In this document: positions 29,655 through 40,368 of the stretch, piece by piece | How positions within the stretch are numbered: the first letter of the stretch is position 1 | How the letters are laid out: each line of letters opens with the position of its first letter | Assembly: GCA_963840145.1 (NCBI GenBank) | Contig: CAWIXR010000005.1 | Coordinates: forward strand, 94,094-158,093 | From: an uncultured Chloroflexia bacterium | Lineage (GTDB): Bacteria > Chloroflexota > Limnocylindria > QHBO01 | Direction: 5' to 3' | Length of the DNA stretch: 64,000 nt | Position numbers and translations under genes: made by a program | The notes under the pieces: generated by a model | Database searches by the model: none | Told to the model about the DNA's origin: nothing | Seen by the model: only the letters and a program-made list of their open reading frames with translations

Positions 29655-31133
29655 ATGACCGACGCCCCCACGAAGCTCCTCATCGGCGGTGAGCTGCGCG
29701 ACGCCGCCGCCGGCGCCACCTTCGCGACGTTCGATCCGGCCCACGGCGGTGAGCTGGCGACCGTCGCCCAAGCCGGGACCGATGACGTCGACGCGGCCGT
29801 CACCGCGGCCCGCGGCGCGCTCGAGGGCGCGTGGGCGAAGACCAGCCCAGCCAAGCGGGCGCGCGCGCTGAACAGGCTGGCGCAGCTGCTCGACGAGCAG
29901 ACCGATGATCTCGCCGAGCTCGAGAGCCGCAACAACGGCAAGGCGAAGTGGCAATGCGCGGCCGAGATCAAGGTGGCGGTGGCCACGCTCGAGCTGTTCG
30001 CCGGCACCGCCCAGCACCTCTACGGCCGCTCCCACGTCGTCAACCCTGCGGTCGTCTCGTACACGCTCCGTGAGCCGGTCGGCGTGGTCGGCGCGATCAT
30101 CCCCTGGAACTACCCGCTGATGATGGCCGCCTGGAAGGTGGCGCCGGCGCTGGCGACCGGCAACACCCTGATCCTGAAGCCCGCATCGGCCACGCCGTTG
30201 ACCGCCATCCGCCTCGGCGAGCTGGCGCTCGAGGCCGGCATCCCGCCCGGCGTGCTCAACGTCATCCCCGGGCCCGGCGCCGAGGTCGGGGAGGCGATCG
30301 CCGCCCATCCGGGCATCGACAAGGTCGCCTTCACCGGCGAGACCGATACCGGCCGCCGCATCGCGGCGGCCGCCGCGGCGACACTCAAGAGAGTGTCGCT
30401 GGAGCTTGGCGGCAAGAGCCCGAACATCGTCTTCGCCGATGCGGACCTCGAGGCGGCCGTCCTCGGCTCGCTGTGGGCGATCTTCTATTCGGCCGGGCAG
30501 TCGTGCGAGGCGCGCTCGCGGATCCTCGTGCAGGACGAGGCCTACGACGCGTTCGCATCGGCCTTTGCGGAGAAGGCTCGGTCCCTTGCCGTCGGCGATC
30601 CCCTCGCCGACGAGACGAAGGTGGGCTCGCTGATCAGCCGCGCGCATGCCGATCGGGTGCGCGAGTTCATCGAGATCGGCGTGGCGGATGGCGGCGAGCT
30701 CCTGGCCGGTGGCCCGCGCGTCGAGCTGAACGGAAACCTCGACGCCGATGCGTTCGTCGCGCCGACGGTCATCGGCGGCGTCGGCAACGACGCGCGGATC
30801 GCGCAGGAGGAGGTCTTCGGCCCGGTCGTGACCCTCACCCGCTTCGGCGACGAGGCCGAGGCGGTGGCCTTCGCGAACGGCGTGCGCTACGGGTTGGCGG
30901 CGACGGTCTGGACCCAGGATGGCTCGCGCGGCCACCGCGTCGCGCAGCGGATCCGGTCGGGCGCGGTCGGCATCAACACCCCGTTCATCGCGTTTCCCGG
31001 TGTCCCGTTCGGCGGCTTCAAGGAGTCCGGCTACGGGCGCGAGCAGTCGATCGAGGCGCTCGACCTGTACACCGAGACGAAGGCGATTCTCCAGAACACC
31101 TCGCCCAAGCCGGTCAACCCGCTCGGCGTCTAG
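29655..31133 (+). CDS. NAD(P)-dependent aldehyde dehydrogenase
   Basis: Catalytic Cys (GQSCEA), ELGGKSP motif and GTGR motif. Confidence 0.9.
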   Translation: MTDAPTKLLIGGELRDAAAGATFATFDPAHGGELATVAQAGTDDVDAAVTAARGALEGAWAKTSPAKRARALNRLAQLLDEQTDDLAELESRNNGKAKWQCAAEIKVAVATLELFAGTAQHLYGRSHVVNPAVVSYTLREPVGVVGAIIPWNYPLMMAAWKVAPALATGNTLILKPASATPLTAIRLGELALEAGIPPGVLNVIPGPGAEVGEAIAAHPGIDKVAFTGETDTGRRIAAAAAATLKRVSLELGGKSPNIVFADADLEAAVLGSLWAIFYSAGQSCEARSRILVQDEAYDAFASAFAEKARSLAVGDPLADETKVGSLISRAHADRVREFIEIGVADGGELLAGGPRVELNGNLDADAFVAPTVIGGVGNDARIAQEEVFGPVVTLTRFGDEAEAVAFANGVRYGLAATVWTQDGSRGHRVAQRIRSGAVGINTPFIAFPGVPFGGFKESGYGREQSIEALDLYTETKAILQNTSPKPVNPLGV

Positions 31134-31137
31134 CCCG

Positions 31138-32022
31138 ATGACCGGTCCCGAGCGCTCCTGGTCCTCGCGCTTCCCCGAAGGCTGGTGGGGCTACCACTGG
31201 GAGCCGCCCGTGCCGATGAGCGCGGTCGAGCTGATCGGCACCCCGACGATCGACGCGCGGCTGATGGCCACGTTGTGGGCCGTTGTCGCCCGCCGCCGCA
31301 GCGTGATGCTCAGCTCCGAGGCGCCGCAGGCCGGCAAGACGACCCTGCTGAGCGCGCTCGTCGACTTCCTCCCCGCTGACACGACCGGAATCTTCGTCCG
31401 CGGCTGGTGGGAGGAGTACGACTGGCTCGACGAGATCCCGCCCGGCACCGGCTACCTGCTCATCAACGAGATGAGCGACCACCTGCCGATCTACGTCTGG
31501 GGCCGCGCCGCCCGCGGCGCGCTGATGCTGGCCGGCAAGGGCTGGGGCATCGGCGCCACCATGCACGCCGACTCGCTTCCCGAGGCCCTCGCCACCCTTC
31601 GGACCCACCTTGGCGCGACCGATGCCGACCTCGCCGGCCTCACCGTCTACCTCCAGTACTCGGCCTACCTGACGCCGGCGGGGATGTATCGGCGCATCGA
31701 GGAAGCCTGGCACCTGCGCCTGGATGCCGATGGCGCGCTGGCGCCCGTCCGGCTCGGGGCCATCGAGGGCGATCGGTCCAGTTCGCTGACCGGCGCCCAG
31801 CGTCTGCCCACGCCGCCGATGCTGTCATCGGATGGTGGCCGTGCTGCGCGGCCATTCCTCCACGACCCGGCCGCCTATGCGGTGCTCGCGACCACGCTCG
31901 GCCTGACGCCGGAGGCATTCGAGGCGGAGCTCGCGCATCGGTCTGGCTTCCTCGAGGAGCTGGCCGAGCGCGGTGTCTGCGATCCACCCGCCGTTGCCGC
32001 AGCCGTACGCGACTTCTCCTGA
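31138..32022 (+). CDS. divergent secretion-type (VirB11/CpaF/FlaI superfamily) P-loop ATPase core, stand-alone
   Basis: Walker A APQAGKTT, Asp-box-like GIFVRGWWEE, atypical Walker B YLLINEMSD and His-box GATMHADS, collinear with the CpaF ATPase domain. No N-terminal domain. The ATG is 4 nt after the aldH stop. Confidence 0.5.
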   Translation: MTGPERSWSSRFPEGWWGYHWEPPVPMSAVELIGTPTIDARLMATLWAVVARRRSVMLSSEAPQAGKTTLLSALVDFLPADTTGIFVRGWWEEYDWLDEIPPGTGYLLINEMSDHLPIYVWGRAARGALMLAGKGWGIGATMHADSLPEALATLRTHLGATDADLAGLTVYLQYSAYLTPAGMYRRIEEAWHLRLDADGALAPVRLGAIEGDRSSSLTGAQRLPTPPMLSSDGGRAARPFLHDPAAYAVLATTLGLTPEAFEAELAHRSGFLEELAERGVCDPPAVAAAVRDFS

Positions 32023-32316
32023 CTCGATCCCCGCACCACGGGACATACGCCCAAGGAGGGCAGCGCGGCGGGGAACTCCGGCGTGATCTGACCCGTGCCA
32101 CGGGAATTCGGCGACGGAGGCGGCCGTGCCTGGGAGTATCTCCCGCCCTACGGGAAGGCCATTCCGCGACGTTGACGCGGTACACTCGCCCTGTTCGCGC
32201 TCAGGCGCGTCCCTATCACGAGTGGCCCGAGAGCCCTGGCTCGCTGACGGCCCGGCAACCGACCCGCGTCCTCGCGCGGAAGCGGTGCCCCAGCCAGGAC
32301 CGATAGGAGACAGAGG
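32023..32316 (+). promoter_or_regulatory. 294-nt leader A with three TCCCG-N5-CGGGA palindromic motifs
   Basis: Copies at 32030-32044, 32092-32106 and 32142-32156. It is paralogous to leader B. Confidence 0.45.
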
Positions 32317-33426
32317 ATGACCGCTCCGCCTTCCCCGAACTCGACGACGCCCGAACGCGCCGTCCACCTGGTCGGCAGCACGCCCTTCGACGATCCCGAT
32401 GAGGCACTCGACGTCTTCTACGCGGAGCTGGGTCCGCGGTTGCGCACCGTCCCTGACGGGGAGACCGGCGAGCGCCAGAACTGGATCCAGGGGCTGATCG
32501 ATTCGTTCCGGCACCATCCCAAGCTCGAGGTCGCGCGCCACGGCGACTGGTCCGACTACGACAAGACGCCGACCTTCCGCGTCCGCCGCGGGCAGCGGTT
32601 CACCTCCGCCGACCTCGATCTTGGGTACCTGCGCCACTTCAACGAGTCGTGGCCGCTCTTCGAGCGACGGCGGACCGATGGCCAGCGCTTCCAGGTCGGC
32701 GTCCCTGGGGACTTCGACCTGTCGTCATTCACGTTCGGCCCGTCGCCGAACGGGCTTCGCTATCGAGCAGCCTTCCGGAACGCGACGCTCCGCGACATTC
32801 GCGCGATCCACGACATCGCCGGCGATGAGGTCGTCTACCAGATCGAGGTGCCCTTCGAGCTCATCATCCTGACCTTCCTGCCGCCCACCGTCGGGCGACT
32901 CGCGGCCGGCTACTTCGCCCGCGGGATCGCCGACCTCGCGCGGCGAGCACCGGAGGGAAGCCGCTGGGGCATCCACCTGTGCCTCGGCGACATGAACCAC
33001 CGTGCCTTCGGCCGGCTGCGCGACGTCGGGCCGGTCGTCTGGCTGGCGAACGCGATCGTCGGCCGATGGCCGGATGGCCGTGTCCTCGACTTCGTCCACG
33101 CGCCGCTGGCCGCGGCCGCCGAGCCGCCGCCACTCGAGCCGGAGTTCTACGCACCGCTGCGCGAGCTGCGGCTTCCCCCCGCGACGCGGTTCGTCGGGGG
33201 CTTCGTCCACGAGGGACGGACGCTTGCCGAGCAGCGGGCGCTGATGGCGCGGCTCGACGCGTTGATCGGCCGGCCCGTGGACGTCGCGTGCTCGTGCGGG
33301 CTGGGGCGACGCTCGCGCGACGACGCGCTGCGGACGATCGCGCTGGCACGGGAACTCGTCGATGGGGATCGGGCCGCGGATGAGGTCGCCGAGTTGCCGC
33401 CCGTAACCGTTGCCGCTCGCGAGTGA
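32317..33426 (+). CDS. MetE/UROD-fold protein (cobalamin-independent methionine synthase C-terminal-domain-like)
   Basis: IHLCLGD (His-x-Cys) and C-terminal VDVACSCGLGRRSRDDALRTIALAREL resemble the MetE zinc-site motifs. AGGAGA RBS. Confidence 0.5.
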   Translation: MTAPPSPNSTTPERAVHLVGSTPFDDPDEALDVFYAELGPRLRTVPDGETGERQNWIQGLIDSFRHHPKLEVARHGDWSDYDKTPTFRVRRGQRFTSADLDLGYLRHFNESWPLFERRRTDGQRFQVGVPGDFDLSSFTFGPSPNGLRYRAAFRNATLRDIRAIHDIAGDEVVYQIEVPFELIILTFLPPTVGRLAAGYFARGIADLARRAPEGSRWGIHLCLGDMNHRAFGRLRDVGPVVWLANAIVGRWPDGRVLDFVHAPLAAAAEPPPLEPEFYAPLRELRLPPATRFVGGFVHEGRTLAEQRALMARLDALIGRPVDVACSCGLGRRSRDDALRTIALARELVDGDRAADEVAELPPVTVAARE

Positions 33427-33717
33427 ACCTCGGCTCCCTTGATTCTCGCACCACGGGAGTTAGTCACAGCGAACCATCCGGGATTGCTACCTCGGTCGCG
33501 ATCTGACCCGCAGGACGGGAAGTTCGCGAAGGAGCTGGCGTTCGCTGGGCGGAACTCCCGCACCACGGGATACGCGCCGCCGAATGACGGCCAAGTGGGT
33601 GGTCGGGCAACGAGTGCTACGCTCTGGGGCGTGACCCCGAGCACCGACCGCCCGGCCGATACCACGCTTGGCGAGCTGCGCGCCGTGGGCTACCGGTCGC
33701 GCAGCGTCAAGGAGGAG
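33427..33717 (+). promoter_or_regulatory. 291-nt leader B with three TCCCG-N5-CGGGA palindromic motifs
   Basis: Copies at 33444-33458, 33506-33520 and 33556-33570. It shares blocks such as GATCTGACCCG and GGAACTCC with leader A. Confidence 0.45.
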
Positions 33718-35058
33718 ATGCGAGCCAACCTGCTGGCTCATCTCCGCGAGGGACGGACCTTCCTGCCGGGAATCCTCGGCTACGACGAGACCGTGCTGCC
33801 GCAGCTCGAGAACGCGATCCTGGCCGGACAGGACGTCATCCTGCTCGGCGAGCGCGGGCAGGCGAAGAGCCGGATCGCGCGCAGCCTCATCGGCCTGCTC
33901 GACCCGTGGCTGCCGTATGTCGCCGGCACCGAGCTCCACGACGACCCATTGCACCCGGTCTCGCCGCTCGCGCGCCGGATCCTCGCCGAGGAAGGCGACA
34001 ACGCGACCATCGGCTGGTGGGCGGCGGAGGATCGGTACAGCGAGAAGCTCAGCACCCCGGACATCAGCATCGCCGACCTCATCGGCGAGGTGGACCCGGT
34101 CAAGGTGGCCGAGGGCCGCTACCTGTCCGACGAGCTGACGATCCACTATGGGCTGCTGCCGCGCACGCATCGGGCCATCTTCAGCCTCAACGAGCTGCCG
34201 GACCTGGCCGAGCGCATCCAGGTCGGCCTGCTCAACGTGATGGAGGAGCGCGACGTCCAGGTCCGCGGCTACCGGGTGCGCCTGGAGCTCGACCTGTTCG
34301 TCATCGCCAGCGCGAACCCGGAGGACTACACGAGCCGCGGGCGGATCATCACGCCGCTGAAGGACCGATTCGGCGCGCAGATCCGGACGCACTACCCGGA
34401 GGAGAGCGACACCGAGATGGCGATCGTCGACTCGGAGGCCACCATCTTCGAGACCGATGACGACCGATCCATCCCGGTCCAGGTGCCCGGCTTCATGAAG
34501 GAGGTCATCGCGGAGCTGTCGCAGCTGGCGCGGCGATCCTCGGAGGTCAGCCAGCGCTCCGGCGTGAGCGTGCGGGTCACGATCTCGAACCACGAGACGC
34601 TTGCCGCGGCCGCACTGAAGCGTGCCGTGCGCCTCGGCGAGCCGTCGGCGGCGCCGCGGATCAGCGACCTGCCGGCGATCGTGGCCTCGACCGCGGGCAA
34701 GATCGAGCTCGAGACCCTCGGCGACGAGACGCGCGAGGATCGCGTCGTCGAGAAGCTCGTGGCCCGCGCGGTCGTCAACGTCTTCAACCGCCACTTCGCG
34801 CTCAGCGAGATGGCGCCGCTTATCGAGCGCTTCGAAGAGGAGGGCCTGCAGGCCGAGGTCGGCGAGTTCGTCCCGTCGACCGCCCACGGCTCGCTGGCCG
34901 ACGCCGTGCCCGAGCTGCGGTCGGCCGTCGCGCGGCTGGACGCCGGGGAGTCGCCGGCGGGCGTGGCCTCGGCGATCGAGTTCGTCCTCGAGGGTCTTCA
35001 CCTCAACCGGCGGTTGAACAAGGAGCGCCGCGGCGGCGGGATCCGCTACGCCCGCTGA
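33718..35058 (+). CDS. ChlI/BchI-like AAA+ protein with degenerate Walker A and Walker B motifs
   Basis: Collinear with Mg-chelatase ChlI (FLPGILGYDE..., LLPRTHRAIFSLNELPDL..., SANPEDYTSRGRIITPLKDRFG). Walker A reads GERGQAKS where ChlI has GDRGTGKS. Walker B reads FSLNE where ChlI has YIDE. AAGGAGG RBS 4 nt before the ATG. Confidence 0.6.
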   Translation: MRANLLAHLREGRTFLPGILGYDETVLPQLENAILAGQDVILLGERGQAKSRIARSLIGLLDPWLPYVAGTELHDDPLHPVSPLARRILAEEGDNATIGWWAAEDRYSEKLSTPDISIADLIGEVDPVKVAEGRYLSDELTIHYGLLPRTHRAIFSLNELPDLAERIQVGLLNVMEERDVQVRGYRVRLELDLFVIASANPEDYTSRGRIITPLKDRFGAQIRTHYPEESDTEMAIVDSEATIFETDDDRSIPVQVPGFMKEVIAELSQLARRSSEVSQRSGVSVRVTISNHETLAAAALKRAVRLGEPSAAPRISDLPAIVASTAGKIELETLGDETREDRVVEKLVARAVVNVFNRHFALSEMAPLIERFEEEGLQAEVGEFVPSTAHGSLADAVPELRSAVARLDAGESPAGVASAIEFVLEGLHLNRRLNKERRGGGIRYAR

Positions 35059-35590: not shown

Positions 35591-38305
35591 GTGCCTGGCG
35601 GGGCGGAAGTCTCCTCGATGACCCTGAGCGATGAGCGTGCCGCGCGATTTGCCGCCGCTGGCGCCTATCGGCGCCTCTTCCTCGTGGCCGGCGTGGGCAT
35701 CGTCGCCCTCGTCGCGGGCGTCCTGGCGAGCGGTGGCGCACCCTGGCCGCAGCTCGTCCGCCTCGCCGCGGCTGCAATCGGCTTCGCGTTAGCGTTCCGC
35801 GGCTGGCACGCCGCGGTCGGCCGCCGCCGTCGCGTCCGCGGGTGGATCACGTTCGCGATCGGCGTCTGGCTCGTCTCCGAGACCGGCCGCCTGGTCGCGG
35901 CCTGGACCGGCGAGCCGGCCATCCTCGCCGAGCTGAGCGTCGTCGCCCTCGCTGTCGCGGCGGTCGGCACCTACATCGCCATCGTCCGCGGTCGGATGCG
36001 GCCGGCCGAGGAGGCGGCCCTCTACCTCGACCAGGCGGCCCTCTTCTTCGGGCTGATGGCCGCGGTGGTGCTCATCGGTTCGAGCGTGCTGTACGACGGC
36101 CACAGCGTGGCGGTGCTGGCGCACGGGGCCTTTTTCCTCGGCGTGCTGGCGGCGACGCTGTTGCTCGATCTCGCCACCCACACGCCGCTCCGCTTCGTGG
36201 GCCCATGGGAGATCCTCGTGGGGCTGGCGTTGGTCGCGGGCGGCTACATCGGGCTGCTGACCCGGACGGGACCGGAGACGGTGACGACGGCGCTGCAGCT
36301 GAGCGTCGCCTTCGGCGTGATTCTGGCCGGACACGGGGGCGGCCACTGGACCGATCTCGAGGCGCGATCGCCGCGATACCTCAGGGCCGCCGACACGTTG
36401 CGGAGGATCCTGCCGATCGGCAGCGCGATTCTGACCGTCGCGATCGGCGTCGTGCTGATCTGGCAGCCGGAGATGATCGCCGGACCCGCGCGCATCGGCG
36501 TGGCGGTCGCGGCCGGCACCGCCGCGCTCGCCGTGCTCGCCCGCCAGACGCTGCTGCTTTTGGATCGCGACAGGGTCATCGGCAGCGAACGCCGCCTCAG
36601 CGACGAGCTGACGGTCGCCGAGGCGCAGTACCGATCCGTCGTCGAGCGCGTGCCCGGCGTCGTCTACGTCGCCGAGGCCGGACAGCACGGTCGCTGGCAT
36701 TTCGTCAGCCCGAAGATCAAGCAACTGCTCGGCTACAGCGCCGAGGAGTGGATGGGCGATCCGACGCTCTGGATGACCCGCATGCATCCGGCCGATCGCG
36801 CCCGGATGATCCAGGCCGAGAACGACGACCTCGAGCGCGCCGACAGCCAGGGGCGCTGGGAATACCGATTGATCGCGCGCGACGGTCGCGTCGTGTGGGT
36901 CATCGACGACGAGGCGGTCATCAGCCGCGACGTCGACGGCCGGCCGATCATGGTGCAGGGCATCCTCGTCGACATCAGCGACCGCAAGGACCTGGAGGAA
37001 CAGCTTCGCCACCAGGCCCTGCACGACCCGCTCACCGGCCTGCCGAATCGGGTGCTCTTCGTGGATCGCCTCTCGCATGCCCTGGTGCGCCGCGCGCGGG
37101 CGACGAACGGTCTCGCGGTGCTGTTCGTCGACCTCGACGACTTCAAGGACGTCAACGACAGCCTCGGCCACGCGGTCGGCGACCGCCTCCTGCGCCTTGT
37201 CGCGGCGCGGCTGCGCGGCGTCCTGCGCGCCGAGGACAGCGCCGGGCGCCTGGGGGGCGACGAGTTCGCCTTCCTGCTCGAGGACGCCACCCCGGCTCGC
37301 GCCGAGCGGGTGGCCGAGCGCATCCTCGCCGCCCTTGGTGCGCCGTTCGAGCTGGGCGAGGGCAATGCGACCCTGTCGGCCAGCATCGGCATCGCGGTCC
37401 GCTCGGGACCGATCGACGAGACCGATGCCACCGCCGCGGCCGACGAGCTGCTGCGCGACGCCGACACCGCGATGTACGCCGCCAAGGCGATGGGCAAGGG
37501 CCGCGTCCGCCTCTTCGACCGCGGCATGTCCGAGCCGGCGGCCCGCCGCCGTGAGCTCGGCGCGGCCCTGGCCCGGGCCTTGGACGATGACGATCAGCTG
37601 TTCCTCGAGTACCAGCCGATCGTCGACCTGCGCAGCCGCTCGTGGTTCGGCCTCGAGGCACTCGTGCGCTGGGATCACCCGCAGCTCGGCCGCCTGATGC
37701 CCGCCGAATTCATTCCGCTGGCAGAGGAGAACCGCCTGATCAGCCGCCTCGGCGACTGGGTCCTGCGCCGCGCCTGCAGCGACCTCGCCGGCGGGAACAC
37801 GCTGGTCTCGGTCAACGTGTCCGCCCACCAGCTCGGCGGCGATCTCTCCGGCGTCGTCGCGGCCGTCCTGGCCGAGACCGGGCTGAAGCCCTCGCGCCTG
37901 ATGCTCGAGCTGACCGAGAGCACGATCGCCTCGGCCGGCGCCGGGGCCGAGGGCGAGCTCCAGGCGATCCAGGGCCTCGGCGTACGGATCGCGCTCGACG
38001 ACTTTGGATCGGGCTACTCCTCGCTCGAATACCTCGGCCGCATCCCGATCGACATCCTGAAGATCGACCGCTCGCTGGTCGAGCAGGTGCACGTCGAGCC
38101 GCAGCGCCAGGAGGTGCTGCGGGCCATCGGCCACATCGCCGAGAAGCTCGGCCTGCGCACGATCGTCGAGGGCGTCGAGCACGAGGCCCAGCGGGAGGCG
38201 CTTCTCGATCTCGGCTTCCACCATGCGCAGGGATTCCTCTTCGCCCACCCGCTGCCGCTCACCGAGGCCCTCGCCCCTCCCTCCGAGCTGTCGCGAGCTT
38301 CGTAG
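35591..38305 (+). CDS. membrane sensor protein with PAS, GGDEF and EAL domains (c-di-GMP turnover)
   Basis: ~9 N-terminal TM helices, a PAS region, GGDEF (RLGGDEFAF) and EAL (EALVRW, ELTES, DDFGSGYSS) motifs. Confidence 0.85.
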   Translation: MPGGAEVSSMTLSDERAARFAAAGAYRRLFLVAGVGIVALVAGVLASGGAPWPQLVRLAAAAIGFALAFRGWHAAVGRRRRVRGWITFAIGVWLVSETGRLVAAWTGEPAILAELSVVALAVAAVGTYIAIVRGRMRPAEEAALYLDQAALFFGLMAAVVLIGSSVLYDGHSVAVLAHGAFFLGVLAATLLLDLATHTPLRFVGPWEILVGLALVAGGYIGLLTRTGPETVTTALQLSVAFGVILAGHGGGHWTDLEARSPRYLRAADTLRRILPIGSAILTVAIGVVLIWQPEMIAGPARIGVAVAAGTAALAVLARQTLLLLDRDRVIGSERRLSDELTVAEAQYRSVVERVPGVVYVAEAGQHGRWHFVSPKIKQLLGYSAEEWMGDPTLWMTRMHPADRARMIQAENDDLERADSQGRWEYRLIARDGRVVWVIDDEAVISRDVDGRPIMVQGILVDISDRKDLEEQLRHQALHDPLTGLPNRVLFVDRLSHALVRRARATNGLAVLFVDLDDFKDVNDSLGHAVGDRLLRLVAARLRGVLRAEDSAGRLGGDEFAFLLEDATPARAERVAERILAALGAPFELGEGNATLSASIGIAVRSGPIDETDATAAADELLRDADTAMYAAKAMGKGRVRLFDRGMSEPAARRRELGAALARALDDDDQLFLEYQPIVDLRSRSWFGLEALVRWDHPQLGRLMPAEFIPLAEENRLISRLGDWVLRRACSDLAGGNTLVSVNVSAHQLGGDLSGVVAAVLAETGLKPSRLMLELTESTIASAGAGAEGELQAIQGLGVRIALDDFGSGYSSLEYLGRIPIDILKIDRSLVEQVHVEPQRQEVLRAIGHIAEKLGLRTIVEGVEHEAQREALLDLGFHHAQGFLFAHPLPLTEALAPPSELSRAS

Positions 38306-39516: not shown

Positions 39517-40368
39517 CTACTCGCGCTCGCCATCAAGAAGCCGATCGACGGCGCGCTGGTACTGCTCGTCAGTCAGCGCGCCGTCTTCGTGCAGCTCCTT
39601 CAGGCGCCGGATCTCCTTCGTCATCGCGCGGCTGGATCGATCCGGCCGCGGCGGCCCCGGAGGCGCATGCGGGCTGCCGAGCGGGAAGCCCTCGCCGAAG
39701 GTCTGCTCCAACGTGCCGAGGACGCGCGACTCGATCAGCTCGCGCGTGCGCCGCGCGAACTCGGACCGCCCGTCCTCCGACGCTGGCTCGTCCGGCATCG
39801 GCTCCGGATCGCCGGCCGATGGGCTCGGCGACGCCGAGACGCCGTCGATGACGAGCTCGAAGATCGGTTCCGGCCGGTCGATGTCCTTCAGCTGGCGATC
39901 GCCCAGTGACCGAAGCTCGCAGCCCTCGCCGAGGTCGCCGGCCACGATCGAGCGGGTCGTGTCCGACAGCAGCACCTGGCCGCCAGCTCCGGTCGCGGCG
40001 ATTCGCGAGGCGCGCACGACGTCGAGGCCGGTGTAGCCCTCGTCGCCGACCGCCGGCTCGCCGGTGTGCAGGCCGAGGCGGATGCGGACCTCGACACCAC
40101 CGGGCCACGATCCCTTGGCGTGGGCGCGCGTCACCTCGACTGCGGCAGCCACGGCCTGGCGGGCGCGGACGAAGGAGTAGAAGAAGGCATCGCCCTGGGT
40201 GTCGATCTCCTGGCCTTCGTGCGCGGCGAAGATGTCGCGCACGAGCCGCCGATGCACGGCAAGCAGTTGCCCGTATTCGGTGTCGCCGAGCTGCTTGAGC
40301 AGCGCCGTGCTGCCGGCGATGTCACTGAATACGAAGGTGACCGTTCCCGAGGGTAGCGTCACGCCCAT
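39517..40368 (-). CDS. class III adenylate/guanylate cyclase with C-terminal SHOCT motif
   Basis: Cyclase homology domain (FSDIAGST...GDAFF...GLHTGE) and C-terminal EIRRLKELHEDGALTDEQYQRAV. Confidence 0.8.
   Translation of the reverse strand: MGVTLPSGTVTFVFSDIAGSTALLKQLGDTEYGQLLAVHRRLVRDIFAAHEGQEIDTQGDAFFYSFVRARQAVAAAVEVTRAHAKGSWPGGVEVRIRLGLHTGEPAVGDEGYTGLDVVRASRIAATGAGGQVLLSDTTRSIVAGDLGEGCELRSLGDRQLKDIDRPEPIFELVIDGVSASPSPSAGDPEPMPDEPASEDGRSEFARRTRELIESRVLGTLEQTFGEGFPLGSPHAPPGPPRPDRSSRAMTKEIRRLKELHEDGALTDEQYQRAVDRLLDGERE

Follow-up and report, generated by a model that had tools for sequence, protein, structure and literature searches.

A methionine-synthase-like gene with a candidate S-adenosylmethionine riboswitch, probably inserted between two conserved ATPase genes in Limnocylindria

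The three co-directional genes considered here—gene 1, gene 2 and gene 3—lie in a stretch of 64,000 nucleotides (nt) from an uncultured Chloroflexia bacterium, which was analysed at its full length and is called the window below. One metagenome contig (L001) is identical to the window sequence, whose G+C content is 70% and whose gene order is syntenic with metagenome-assembled genomes (MAGs) of Candidatus Limnocylindria (Chloroflexota). Gene 1 encodes a stand-alone ATPase domain of the secretion type, gene 2 a protein of MetE/MesD-like fold, and gene 3 a ChlI-like AAA+ protein (Table 1); since homologues of each are counted in hundreds to thousands, all three are taken as real genes. The gene upstream, for an aldehyde dehydrogenase, ends at position 31133, i.e. 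4 nt before the ATG of gene 1. An earlier reading of this DNA made from its letters alone—here the sequence-only reading—had joined the three genes into one novel module, and both the open reading frames (ORFs) and all the motifs that it quoted are indeed present. The comparisons presented below point to a different picture, in which the region is probably a composite, a cassette of a riboswitch and gene 2 having been inserted between the ATPase genes 1 and 3.

Table 1. Features of the three-gene region; positions are counted from the first letter of the window (aa, amino acids)
Feature	Position	Strand	Basis or remark
Gene 1, 294-aa C-terminal domain of a FlaI/GspE/CpaF-type ATPase	31138–32022	+	Homologues of 294–305 aa, 100% coverage
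Repeat copy 1, 144 nt, palindromes at 32030–32043, 32092–32105 and 32142–32155	32012–32155	.	Direct repeat of copy 2
Putative −10 hexamer TACACT of the gene-2 promoter	32181–32186	+	Read from the sequence
SAM-I-clan riboswitch aptamer with reduced P4	32210–32309	+	Full-length match to RF00162
Gene 2, 369-aa MetE/MesD-like (beta/alpha)8 protein with an H-x-C...C motif	32317–33426	+	Fold and invariant residues
Repeat copy 2, palindromes at 33445–33458, 33507–33520 and 33557–33570	33427–33570	.	Paralogue of copy 1
Putative extended −10 element TGcTACGCT	33615–33623	+	Ends 7 nt before GTG 33631
Gene 3, Rv0958-family AAA+ ATPase (ChlI-like, 475 aa), extended at the C-terminus by ~140 aa	33631–35058	+	Homology
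DUF1232 (YkvA-type) small protein, 155 aa	35063–35530	+	Pfam DUF1232, E 3e-12; starts 4 nt past the gene-3 stop

Gene order was compared across 80 loci of different Limnocylindria species, the genome scan having returned Limnocylindria alone. The order gene 1–gene 3 is seen in 77 of them, two of the three exceptions being truncated contigs, and in 62 the genes are directly adjacent, with a gap below about 300 nt; the pair is 70–94% identical and syntenic across the group. Only the window and one relative (locus L009), on the other hand, have gene 2 between the two. Co-conservation in related genomes, which the sequence-only reading had itself named as the test of its module, thus holds for genes 1 and 3 and fails for gene 2. 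The 4-nt spacing that had been read as translational coupling of gene 1 to the aldehyde dehydrogenase gene does exist in this strain, but is not conserved in the relatives.

In Limnocylindria the junction of genes 1 and 3 is a hotspot of insertion, and 15 of the 80 loci carry other inserts there. These inserts, 0.8–3.8 kb in size, occur in L010, L013, L017, L018, L020, L023, L031–L034, L039, L043, L047, L051 and L065, and comprise a recurrent ORF of ~250–280 aa starting with MGR(L/V)S..DLR, LuxR-like ORFs, an ORF of ~1190 aa on the reverse strand whose N-terminal part bears a zinc-ribbon-like motif, and a protein of ~630–645 aa with a signal peptide.

Concerning the cassette itself, the 5′ untranslated region (UTR) of gene 2 is near-identical in the window and in a relative whose protein shares just 81% identity, and because of this conservation Rfam was scanned at E-value thresholds. 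Nothing in the window is matched at the gathering thresholds; once E-values are used, a riboswitch aptamer of the S-adenosylmethionine (SAM)-I clan appears as the sole Rfam match at E ≤ 0.01 (like the searches for chelatase partners and VWA proteins, the scan of the source covered these 64 kb). The aptamer scores 39.4 bits (E 5.6e-7, or 2e-5 when scored over the whole window), is situated on the same strand as gene 2 within its 5′ UTR, and precedes a gene whose product has a methionine-synthase fold. Its 3′ end, GAUAGGAG, lies 8 nt upstream of the gene-2 ATG, and the 3′ strand of stem P1 (GAUAGG, 32302–32307) overlaps the Shine–Dalgarno sequence AGGAG (32305–32309), so that a P1 stabilised by SAM should block ribosome binding. 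Ahead of the riboswitch in L009, TAGACT occupies the place equivalent to the putative −10 hexamer of gene 2.

Equivalent aptamers of 36–45.6 bits precede relatives of gene 2 in six other loci. Whereas in L009 aptamer and gene lie between genes 1 and 3, those of L021 and L037 are found downstream of gene 3 (43.4 bits for the L037 copy), and that of L006, with 45.6 bits above the gathering score, belongs to a locus unrelated to genes 1 and 3; the aptamers of L065 (44.4 bits) and L018 precede a second subfamily, 26% identical to gene 2. The linkage between riboswitch and gene family spans, in other words, two subfamilies and three different genomic positions. In a consensus fold of the seven copies the P1–P2–P3 architecture and the core are kept, with compensatory changes in P3, and P4 is vestigial with about 2 bp, the RF00162 model being 18 nt longer there. 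As a separate observation, one SAM riboswitch in L006 (8771–11080) is followed by two tandem gene-2 paralogues of 362 and 359 aa, 26% identical to each other and both keeping the H-x-C and C-G motifs; the first of them defines the second subfamily, the one also met behind the riboswitches of L065 and L018.

The likeness to RF00162 and to the clan CL00012, which also holds SAM-IV and SAM-I/IV, consists of the covariance-model match, the P1–P2–P3 arrangement with its conserved junction nucleotides, and the position ahead of a methionine-related gene, within its 5′ UTR; the overlap of P1 with the Shine–Dalgarno sequence resembles the translationally acting SAM riboswitches of high-GC bacteria. 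The differences are the P4 of about 2 bp, the lack of an intrinsic terminator after the aptamer, and the fact that the gene-2 family is not among the known members of the SAM regulon. Judged by these sequence features, gene 2 most likely belongs to the SAM regulon through a riboswitch of its own that is predicted to bind SAM.

As to the protein, at least 873 clusters of gene-2 homologues were collected at E ≤ 0.001, every one of them named 'hypothetical', from the soil phyla Chloroflexota and Actinomycetota and from one Archangium MAG. The AlphaFold model (predicted local distance difference test, pLDDT, 90.9; predicted template-modelling score 0.89) finds in Foldseek the core methionine synthase MesD as its best match (3RPD, E 1.4e-6), then MetE structures, then UROD and MtaA; all of the top three are methionine synthases, and they score clearly ahead of MtaA and UROD. 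Across 54 sequences of the family, S21, E71, Q175-x-E177-x-P179, H220, C222 and C327 are invariant, the motifs reading H220-L-C222 and C327-G-L-G-R-R in the window. Based on motif comparison, H220-x-C222 and C327-G would correspond to H641, C643 and C726, which together with E665 are the zinc ligands of E. coli MetE, and S21, E71 and the glutamate of QIE177VP stand at sequence positions near-identical to those of Ser22, Glu73 and Asp188 of MesD and of the MetE motif QIDEP, the homocysteine-binding residues of MetE being S433, E484 and D599 (Price et al. 2021; PMC7857596). The MetE-like character that the sequence-only reading had ascribed to this short protein on account of its His-x-Cys/Cys motifs is borne out by the fold, and the three residues are invariant.

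With the core methionine synthases MesD and MetE (3RPD, 1T7L, 1YPX; PMC7857596) gene 2 shares a single (beta/alpha)8 barrel of ~340–370 aa, an H-x-C...C motif of the zinc type, invariant Ser/Glu/acidic residues that probably occupy the homocysteine-binding positions of MesD, and the predicted membership of the methionine/SAM regulon. It differs from them in being only 12–13% identical and missed by Pfam Meth_synt_2, NCBIfam and profile searches, in having no gene for MesX (DUF1852) or for a corrinoid protein adjoining it, and in carrying a family signature of its own, PDGETGERxNWI. The most likely product of gene 2 is a homocysteine S-methyltransferase that depends on zinc, is repressed by SAM and belongs to a new 'core' family, one that escapes sequence comparison. 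The cassette, extending from about 32160 to 33426, would then be a monocistronic unit of promoter, riboswitch and gene 2. Plentiful SAM would bind the aptamer and stabilise P1, the 3′ strand of which would mask the AGGAG ribosome-binding site and turn translation of gene 2 off; under scarcity of SAM the enzyme would be made, and it would convert homocysteine, as a Zn-activated thiolate, to methionine at the expense of some methyl donor.

Several observations weigh against this assignment. The window aptamer stays 5 bits under the RF00162 gathering score (44.4) with its P4 almost gone, and no riboswitch was found at the gene-2 homologues of other taxa (L007, L173–L176), so that the case for SAM control extends to Chloroflexota-type loci only. 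Neither Pfam nor NCBIfam matches gene 2, Pfam gives no consistent match over the 54 aligned family members, phmmer against the Protein Data Bank (PDB) returned nothing meaningful, and the family profile found no match in the PDB. An hhalign comparison of the family with the C-terminal domain of E. coli MetE placed QIEVP on QIDEP and HLC on the MetE HMC at a non-significant E of 0.57, the counterpart of MetE Glu665 was not identified, and the residue equivalences given above are sequence-level ones. Finally, MesD requires the partner MesX as well as oxygen (PMC7857596), and no partner is evident for gene 2.

It has to be considered, therefore, whether gene 2 could be a member of the SAM regulon and still be some other Zn-dependent alkyl or methyl transferase, e.g. 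one of methylthio salvage or of the use of S-methyl donors, or a decarboxylase of the UROD type. Its falling in no methionine-synthase family by sequence would suit such an enzyme, as would the tandem paralogues of some genomes, which suggest diversified substrates, and the actinobacterial homologue paired with a TrpB-like enzyme instead of obvious met genes. UROD, however, has no zinc site, whereas H-x-C...C is invariant in the gene-2 family; moreover, the structural ranking places methionine synthases first, and the residues that probably match the homocysteine-binding triad of MetE/MesD are invariant. This alternative is consequently regarded as unlikely, albeit worth keeping in mind, and a homocysteine S-methyltransferase is preferred. 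The actinobacterial case is L175 (2629–5032), a Geodermatophilaceae MAG, where the gene-2 homologue begins 2 nt after the gene for a TrpB-like pyridoxal-phosphate enzyme of the PRK12391 family and where MoeZ and a PatB-type C-S lyase are encoded nearby; this neighbourhood, which counts also on the side of the homocysteine-methyltransferase assignment, may point to a partner or a pathway for the gene-2 protein beyond Chloroflexota.

The cassette is bracketed by two direct repeats of 144 nt, 73–75% identical at a constant offset of 1415 nt—these are the paralogous, palindrome-bearing leaders pointed out by the sequence-only reading. Copy 1, which begins within the final codons of gene 1, precedes the putative promoter of gene 2, and copy 2 precedes that of gene 3. 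Each contains three (T)CCCG-N5-CGGGA palindromes with spacings of 62 and 49 nt, a motif with 11 occurrences in the window where 3.5 would be expected. The palindrome segments are absent from the 91 other loci searched (L002–L092), the closest relatives included, and as RNA the repeats fold no better than shuffled sequences (z 0.72 for copy 1 and −2.0 for copy 2); being absent elsewhere and without an RNA fold, the palindromes do not count as regulatory elements conserved with either gene family. From their sequence they may represent strain-specific protein-binding (operator) sites or an insertion scar. Direct repeats on both sides of the cassette fit a duplication that went along with an insertion, or a rearrangement, between genes 1 and 3; gene 2 would have entered this variable spacer in the lineage of the window.

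The two ATPase genes flanking the cassette form the second unit. The AlphaFold model of gene 1 (pLDDT 90.6) is matched in Foldseek by archaeal GspE (2OAP, 2.6e-14), FlaI (4II7, 2.4e-13) and CpaF (1.6e-8), with 8RKD also among the best, and superposes on the C-terminal RecA-like domain of FlaI/GspE with a template-modelling score of ~0.68 over ~300 columns. The matches are confined to this C-terminal domain of the 420–510-aa ATPases, gene-1 residues 25–90 being aligned to residues 233–296 of 2OAP, and no N-terminal (N1/N2) domain is present in the 294 residues, in agreement with what the sequence-only reading had described as a stand-alone domain with an altered Walker B (LLINEMSDH in the window). 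The family, about 513 clusters at 50% identity, conserves WWGxHW, AGKTT, NExSDHLPxYxWG and TxHA; G66, K67, E92, E111 and H143 are invariant or nearly so. Pfam does not match gene 1 itself, and T2SSE is matched weakly in 35 of 74 family members (best E 4.4e-6).

The likeness to FlaI, archaeal GspE and CpaF(TadA) (2OAP, 4II7, 8RKD) comprises the RecA-like fold, the GKT(T) P-loop, the glutamate in the NEMSD strand, which equals that of the GE(I/M)RD Walker B, the TMHA His-box and Glu92 of the Asp-box. Gene 1 differs by its missing N-terminal domain, by a deviant P-loop, A-G-K-T-T, with a one-residue insertion and the first Gly gone, and by the N-terminal WWGxHW motif. No pilus, secretion or archaellum genes—platform, pilin or secretin—were found within 10 kb on either side of gene 1 in the window or in its relatives; the constant partner is, instead, the ChlI-like AAA+ gene. 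A gene-1-like subfamily of ~34% identity is followed by neither a ChlI-like nor a VWA gene (L099, L105, L125, L137, L149, L162, L164, L170), and in several of these loci its neighbours are an acyltransferase-domain gene on one side and a HAD hydrolase gene on the other.

Gene 3 could be read from a first start codon at 33439, but its homologues measure 470–476 aa and cover the 475-aa version completely, for which reason the GTG at 33631 was taken as the start. The element TGGTAGGCT is found 6–10 nt upstream of the gene-3 start codon in most loci of the window's clade (TGnTAnnnT in window 33615–33633, L002 10930–10948 and L009 11295–11312). Since this extended −10 ends so close to the GTG and recurs in the clade, gene 3 is probably translated from a leaderless mRNA with a promoter of its own. 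Other Limnocylindria carry a GAGGAG Shine–Dalgarno sequence before gene 3 in place of the leaderless-type arrangement, indicating that the expression signal switches between lineages.

The homology of gene 3 to ChlI, recognised already in the sequence-only reading, is confirmed by the matches to 8OSF (E 2e-6, or 1.6e-9 with a profile) and 1G8P (E 5.6e-8). It is 61% identical to TRD_RS11480 of Thermomicrobium roseum and 49% to the Tsukamurella orthologue located next to purH. The substitutions in GERGQAKS and FSLNELPD, which had led to the label 'pseudo-ATPase', are present, but the label is unproven, since K79 and S/T80 of Walker A, E188 of Walker B, N229 of sensor 1 and the arginine of KDRFG are invariant and the orthologue from the actinobacterium Tsukamurella has Gly in place of the Walker-A Ala; Asn187 of Walker B, invariant across the Chloroflexota and Actinomycetota orthologues, is the sole family-wide deviation. 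The name of sigma-54 enhancer-binding protein given to homologues at NCBI was rejected, no GAFTGA being present in the sequence or the family alignment; Sigma54_activat of Pfam is matched partially, over 59 residues with 24 bits. The M. smegmatis orthologue co-purified in an RNA-polymerase-centred screen and showed no DNA association (PMC7092591). In M. marinum, a transposon 49 bp upstream of the Rv0958 orthologue mmar_4541 was among the B12-resistant mutants of a cobC metH strain, in a B12-toxicity screen whose phenotype hinges on methionine synthesis; the insertion was not followed up by the authors (PMC11237697). This methionine-linked phenotype is a curious echo of the methionine-synthase-like gene beside gene 3 in the window.

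What the window holds in genes 1 and 3 is a form, without VWA gene, of the triad: a widespread, conserved operon for two ATPases and a VWA protein to which the Rv0958/Rv0959 family belongs, Rv0958 being the type of gene 3 and Rv0959 that of the VWA protein. In Thermomicrobium roseum, TRD_RS11475-11480-11485 encode a gene-1-like protein, a gene-3-like protein and a 699-aa VWA protein, in this order, and a VWA gene comes after gene 3 in 29 of the 80 Limnocylindria loci. More distant gene-1 relatives were represented by 80 loci from a metagenome scan seeded with distant family members; where at least 1.5 kb of downstream sequence was available (55 loci), gene 3 is next in 45 and a VWA gene follows in 42. 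Tsukamurella has its gene-3 orthologue and a VWA gene next to purN-purH, presumably the same purH-side position as that of Rv0958/Rv0959 in M. tuberculosis, and gene 1 is not there; the gene upstream of the gene-3 orthologue was considered as a gene-1 homologue and ruled out, its product being an HTH_67 protein. The window lacks a VWA homologue (tblastn), and the genes flanking the distant triads (amidase, luciferase-like, CCG/Fe-S, GT87) follow the synteny of the taxon and give no hint of function. The DUF1232 gene, which the sequence-only reading had correctly placed after gene 3, joins the operon only now and then: in 11 of the 80 loci it comes after gene 3, and in L071, L083 and L084 it separates gene 3 from the VWA gene. 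In one metagenomic lineage an ORF of ~480–750 aa without a Pfam match is located directly downstream of the VWA gene (L163 8763–10217, with equivalents in L113, L115, L124, L128, L132, L166 and L171), and it could be a fourth component or a client of the triad.

By analogy with ChlI-ChlD, CobS-CobT and MoxR-VWA, the best guess for the triad is an ATP-driven AAA+/VWA motor for remodelling or cofactor insertion, and genes 1 and 3 with the DUF1232 gene would act in this manner on some client. The analogy extends to the ChlI-like gene 3, shared also with Rv0958-Rv0959, and to the ChlD/CobT-type adaptor, its counterpart in the orthologous operons being a protein of ~680 aa with a C-terminal VWA domain encoded directly downstream of gene 3. 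It is limited by the absence of a VWA gene from the window and of a ChlH/CobN client, by the Walker B of gene 3 with N-E instead of the D-E of ChlI, and by the additional C-terminal domain; with respect to Rv0958-Rv0959, the Chloroflexota operons possess an extra partner, gene 1. A literature search for a functional study of the Rv0958/Rv0959 family found none, which counts against the proposed function.

Two NTPases with a VWA protein, together with a weak match to Pfam bpMoxR and the diverse inserts at the junction of 15 of the 80 species, could also recall NTP-dependent systems for conflict or defence like those of the MoxR-vWA type, with cargo genes at the junction. No PADLOC model, however, matches gene 1, gene 3, the VWA or the DUF1232 protein, the near-universal and syntenic occurrence of the well-conserved pair is unlike that of sporadic defence islands, and the actinobacterial pair resides in the housekeeping neighbourhood purN-purH; a defence role for the triad appears quite improbable.

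The three-gene module of the sequence-only reading, devoted to metal insertion, methyl transfer or signalling—a version of it would have the ATPases mature or metallate the MetE-like enzyme—has to be judged against the same data. In its favour, the genes are contiguous and co-directional in the window and in L009, and the same triple-palindrome segment ahead of genes 2 and 3 could mean co-regulation. AAA+/VWA pairs in other systems are, moreover, known to mature metalloenzymes. To this may be added the mmar_4541 insertion of the B12-toxicity screen. It also weighs against two independent units that a gene of the gene-2 family lies within 8 kb of genes 1/3 in 6 of about 81 Limnocylindria loci, which exceeds random placement and makes a loose link between them conceivable. 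This residual association is best explained by regional synteny. No such gene lies within that distance in 75 of the 80 related species, none is near genes 1/3 in the 80 loci of distant gene-1 relatives, and the homologues in L006, L007 and L173–L176 have unrelated contexts without a nearby gene 1 or 3. Gene 2 has, in addition, a candidate riboswitch and a putative promoter of its own, as gene 3 probably has its own promoter, the palindromes are strain-specific among the loci searched, and the junction takes unrelated inserts as well. A single module is accordingly considered very improbable: the adjacency of genes in a single genome misled the module hypothesis.

Equally improbable is the view, suggested by the database name, that gene 3, together with gene 1, serves tetrapyrrole biosynthesis as a genuine component of a Mg- or Co-chelatase: ChlI and BchI are its nearest solved relatives, TIGR02030, TIGR02031 and TIGR02442 are weakly matched and the VWA partner of the orthologous operons resembles the C-terminal part of ChlD/cobaltochelatase, but these matches reach just 23–40 bits against equivalog cut-offs of 467–779 (23 against 467 for TIGR02030), a ChlH/CobN-type subunit is missing from all the contexts examined, ChlD, ChlH, CobN and CobT are absent from the window—as had been noticed from its sequence—the Walker-B Asp is replaced by Asn family-wide, ChlI lacks the C-terminal domain of ~140 aa, and the gene-3 family is kept in non-phototrophic Actinomycetota next to purH.

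Returning to the composite of two independent units, neither the gene-2 family nor the triad is a categorically new system. The joint proposal that gene 2 represents a fifth family of core methionine synthases lacking the folate domain and that the triad is a new kind of machine is a tentative one, for which the balance falls somewhat on the doubtful side. Under it, the gene-2 family with its two subfamilies, which would be under SAM-riboswitch control in Chloroflexota and is widespread in Actinomycetota, would use a methyl donor other than that of MetE/MetH, and the domain-stripped secretion-type ATPase would work with the ChlI-like AAA+/VWA motor; the most speculative element is that the triad might mature or metallate the gene-2 enzyme. 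If gene 2 is a methionine synthase, a widespread enzyme family invisible to annotation would be added to a central pathway, the dependence on methionine and B12 inferred from genomes and metagenomes would change, and the identity of the methyl donor would become a question. Through its linkage to the riboswitch, a family of 'hypothetical proteins' gains a functional assignment that can be put to the test at once. The triad, for its part, ties a stripped-down secretion-type ATPase to the Rv0958/Rv0959 family conserved in mycobacteria, for which it would offer the first functional handle if the motor reading is true, and the cultured Thermomicrobium roseum is the organism in which it can be studied.

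Two further neighbours should be mentioned. After the DUF1232 gene comes that of a membrane-anchored PAS-GGDEF-EAL protein (35591–38305), as the sequence-only reading had stated, and its relative position is kept in many Limnocylindria loci. Close by, on the opposite strand, a protein with a guanylate-cyclase domain and a SHOCT tail is encoded at 39517–40368.

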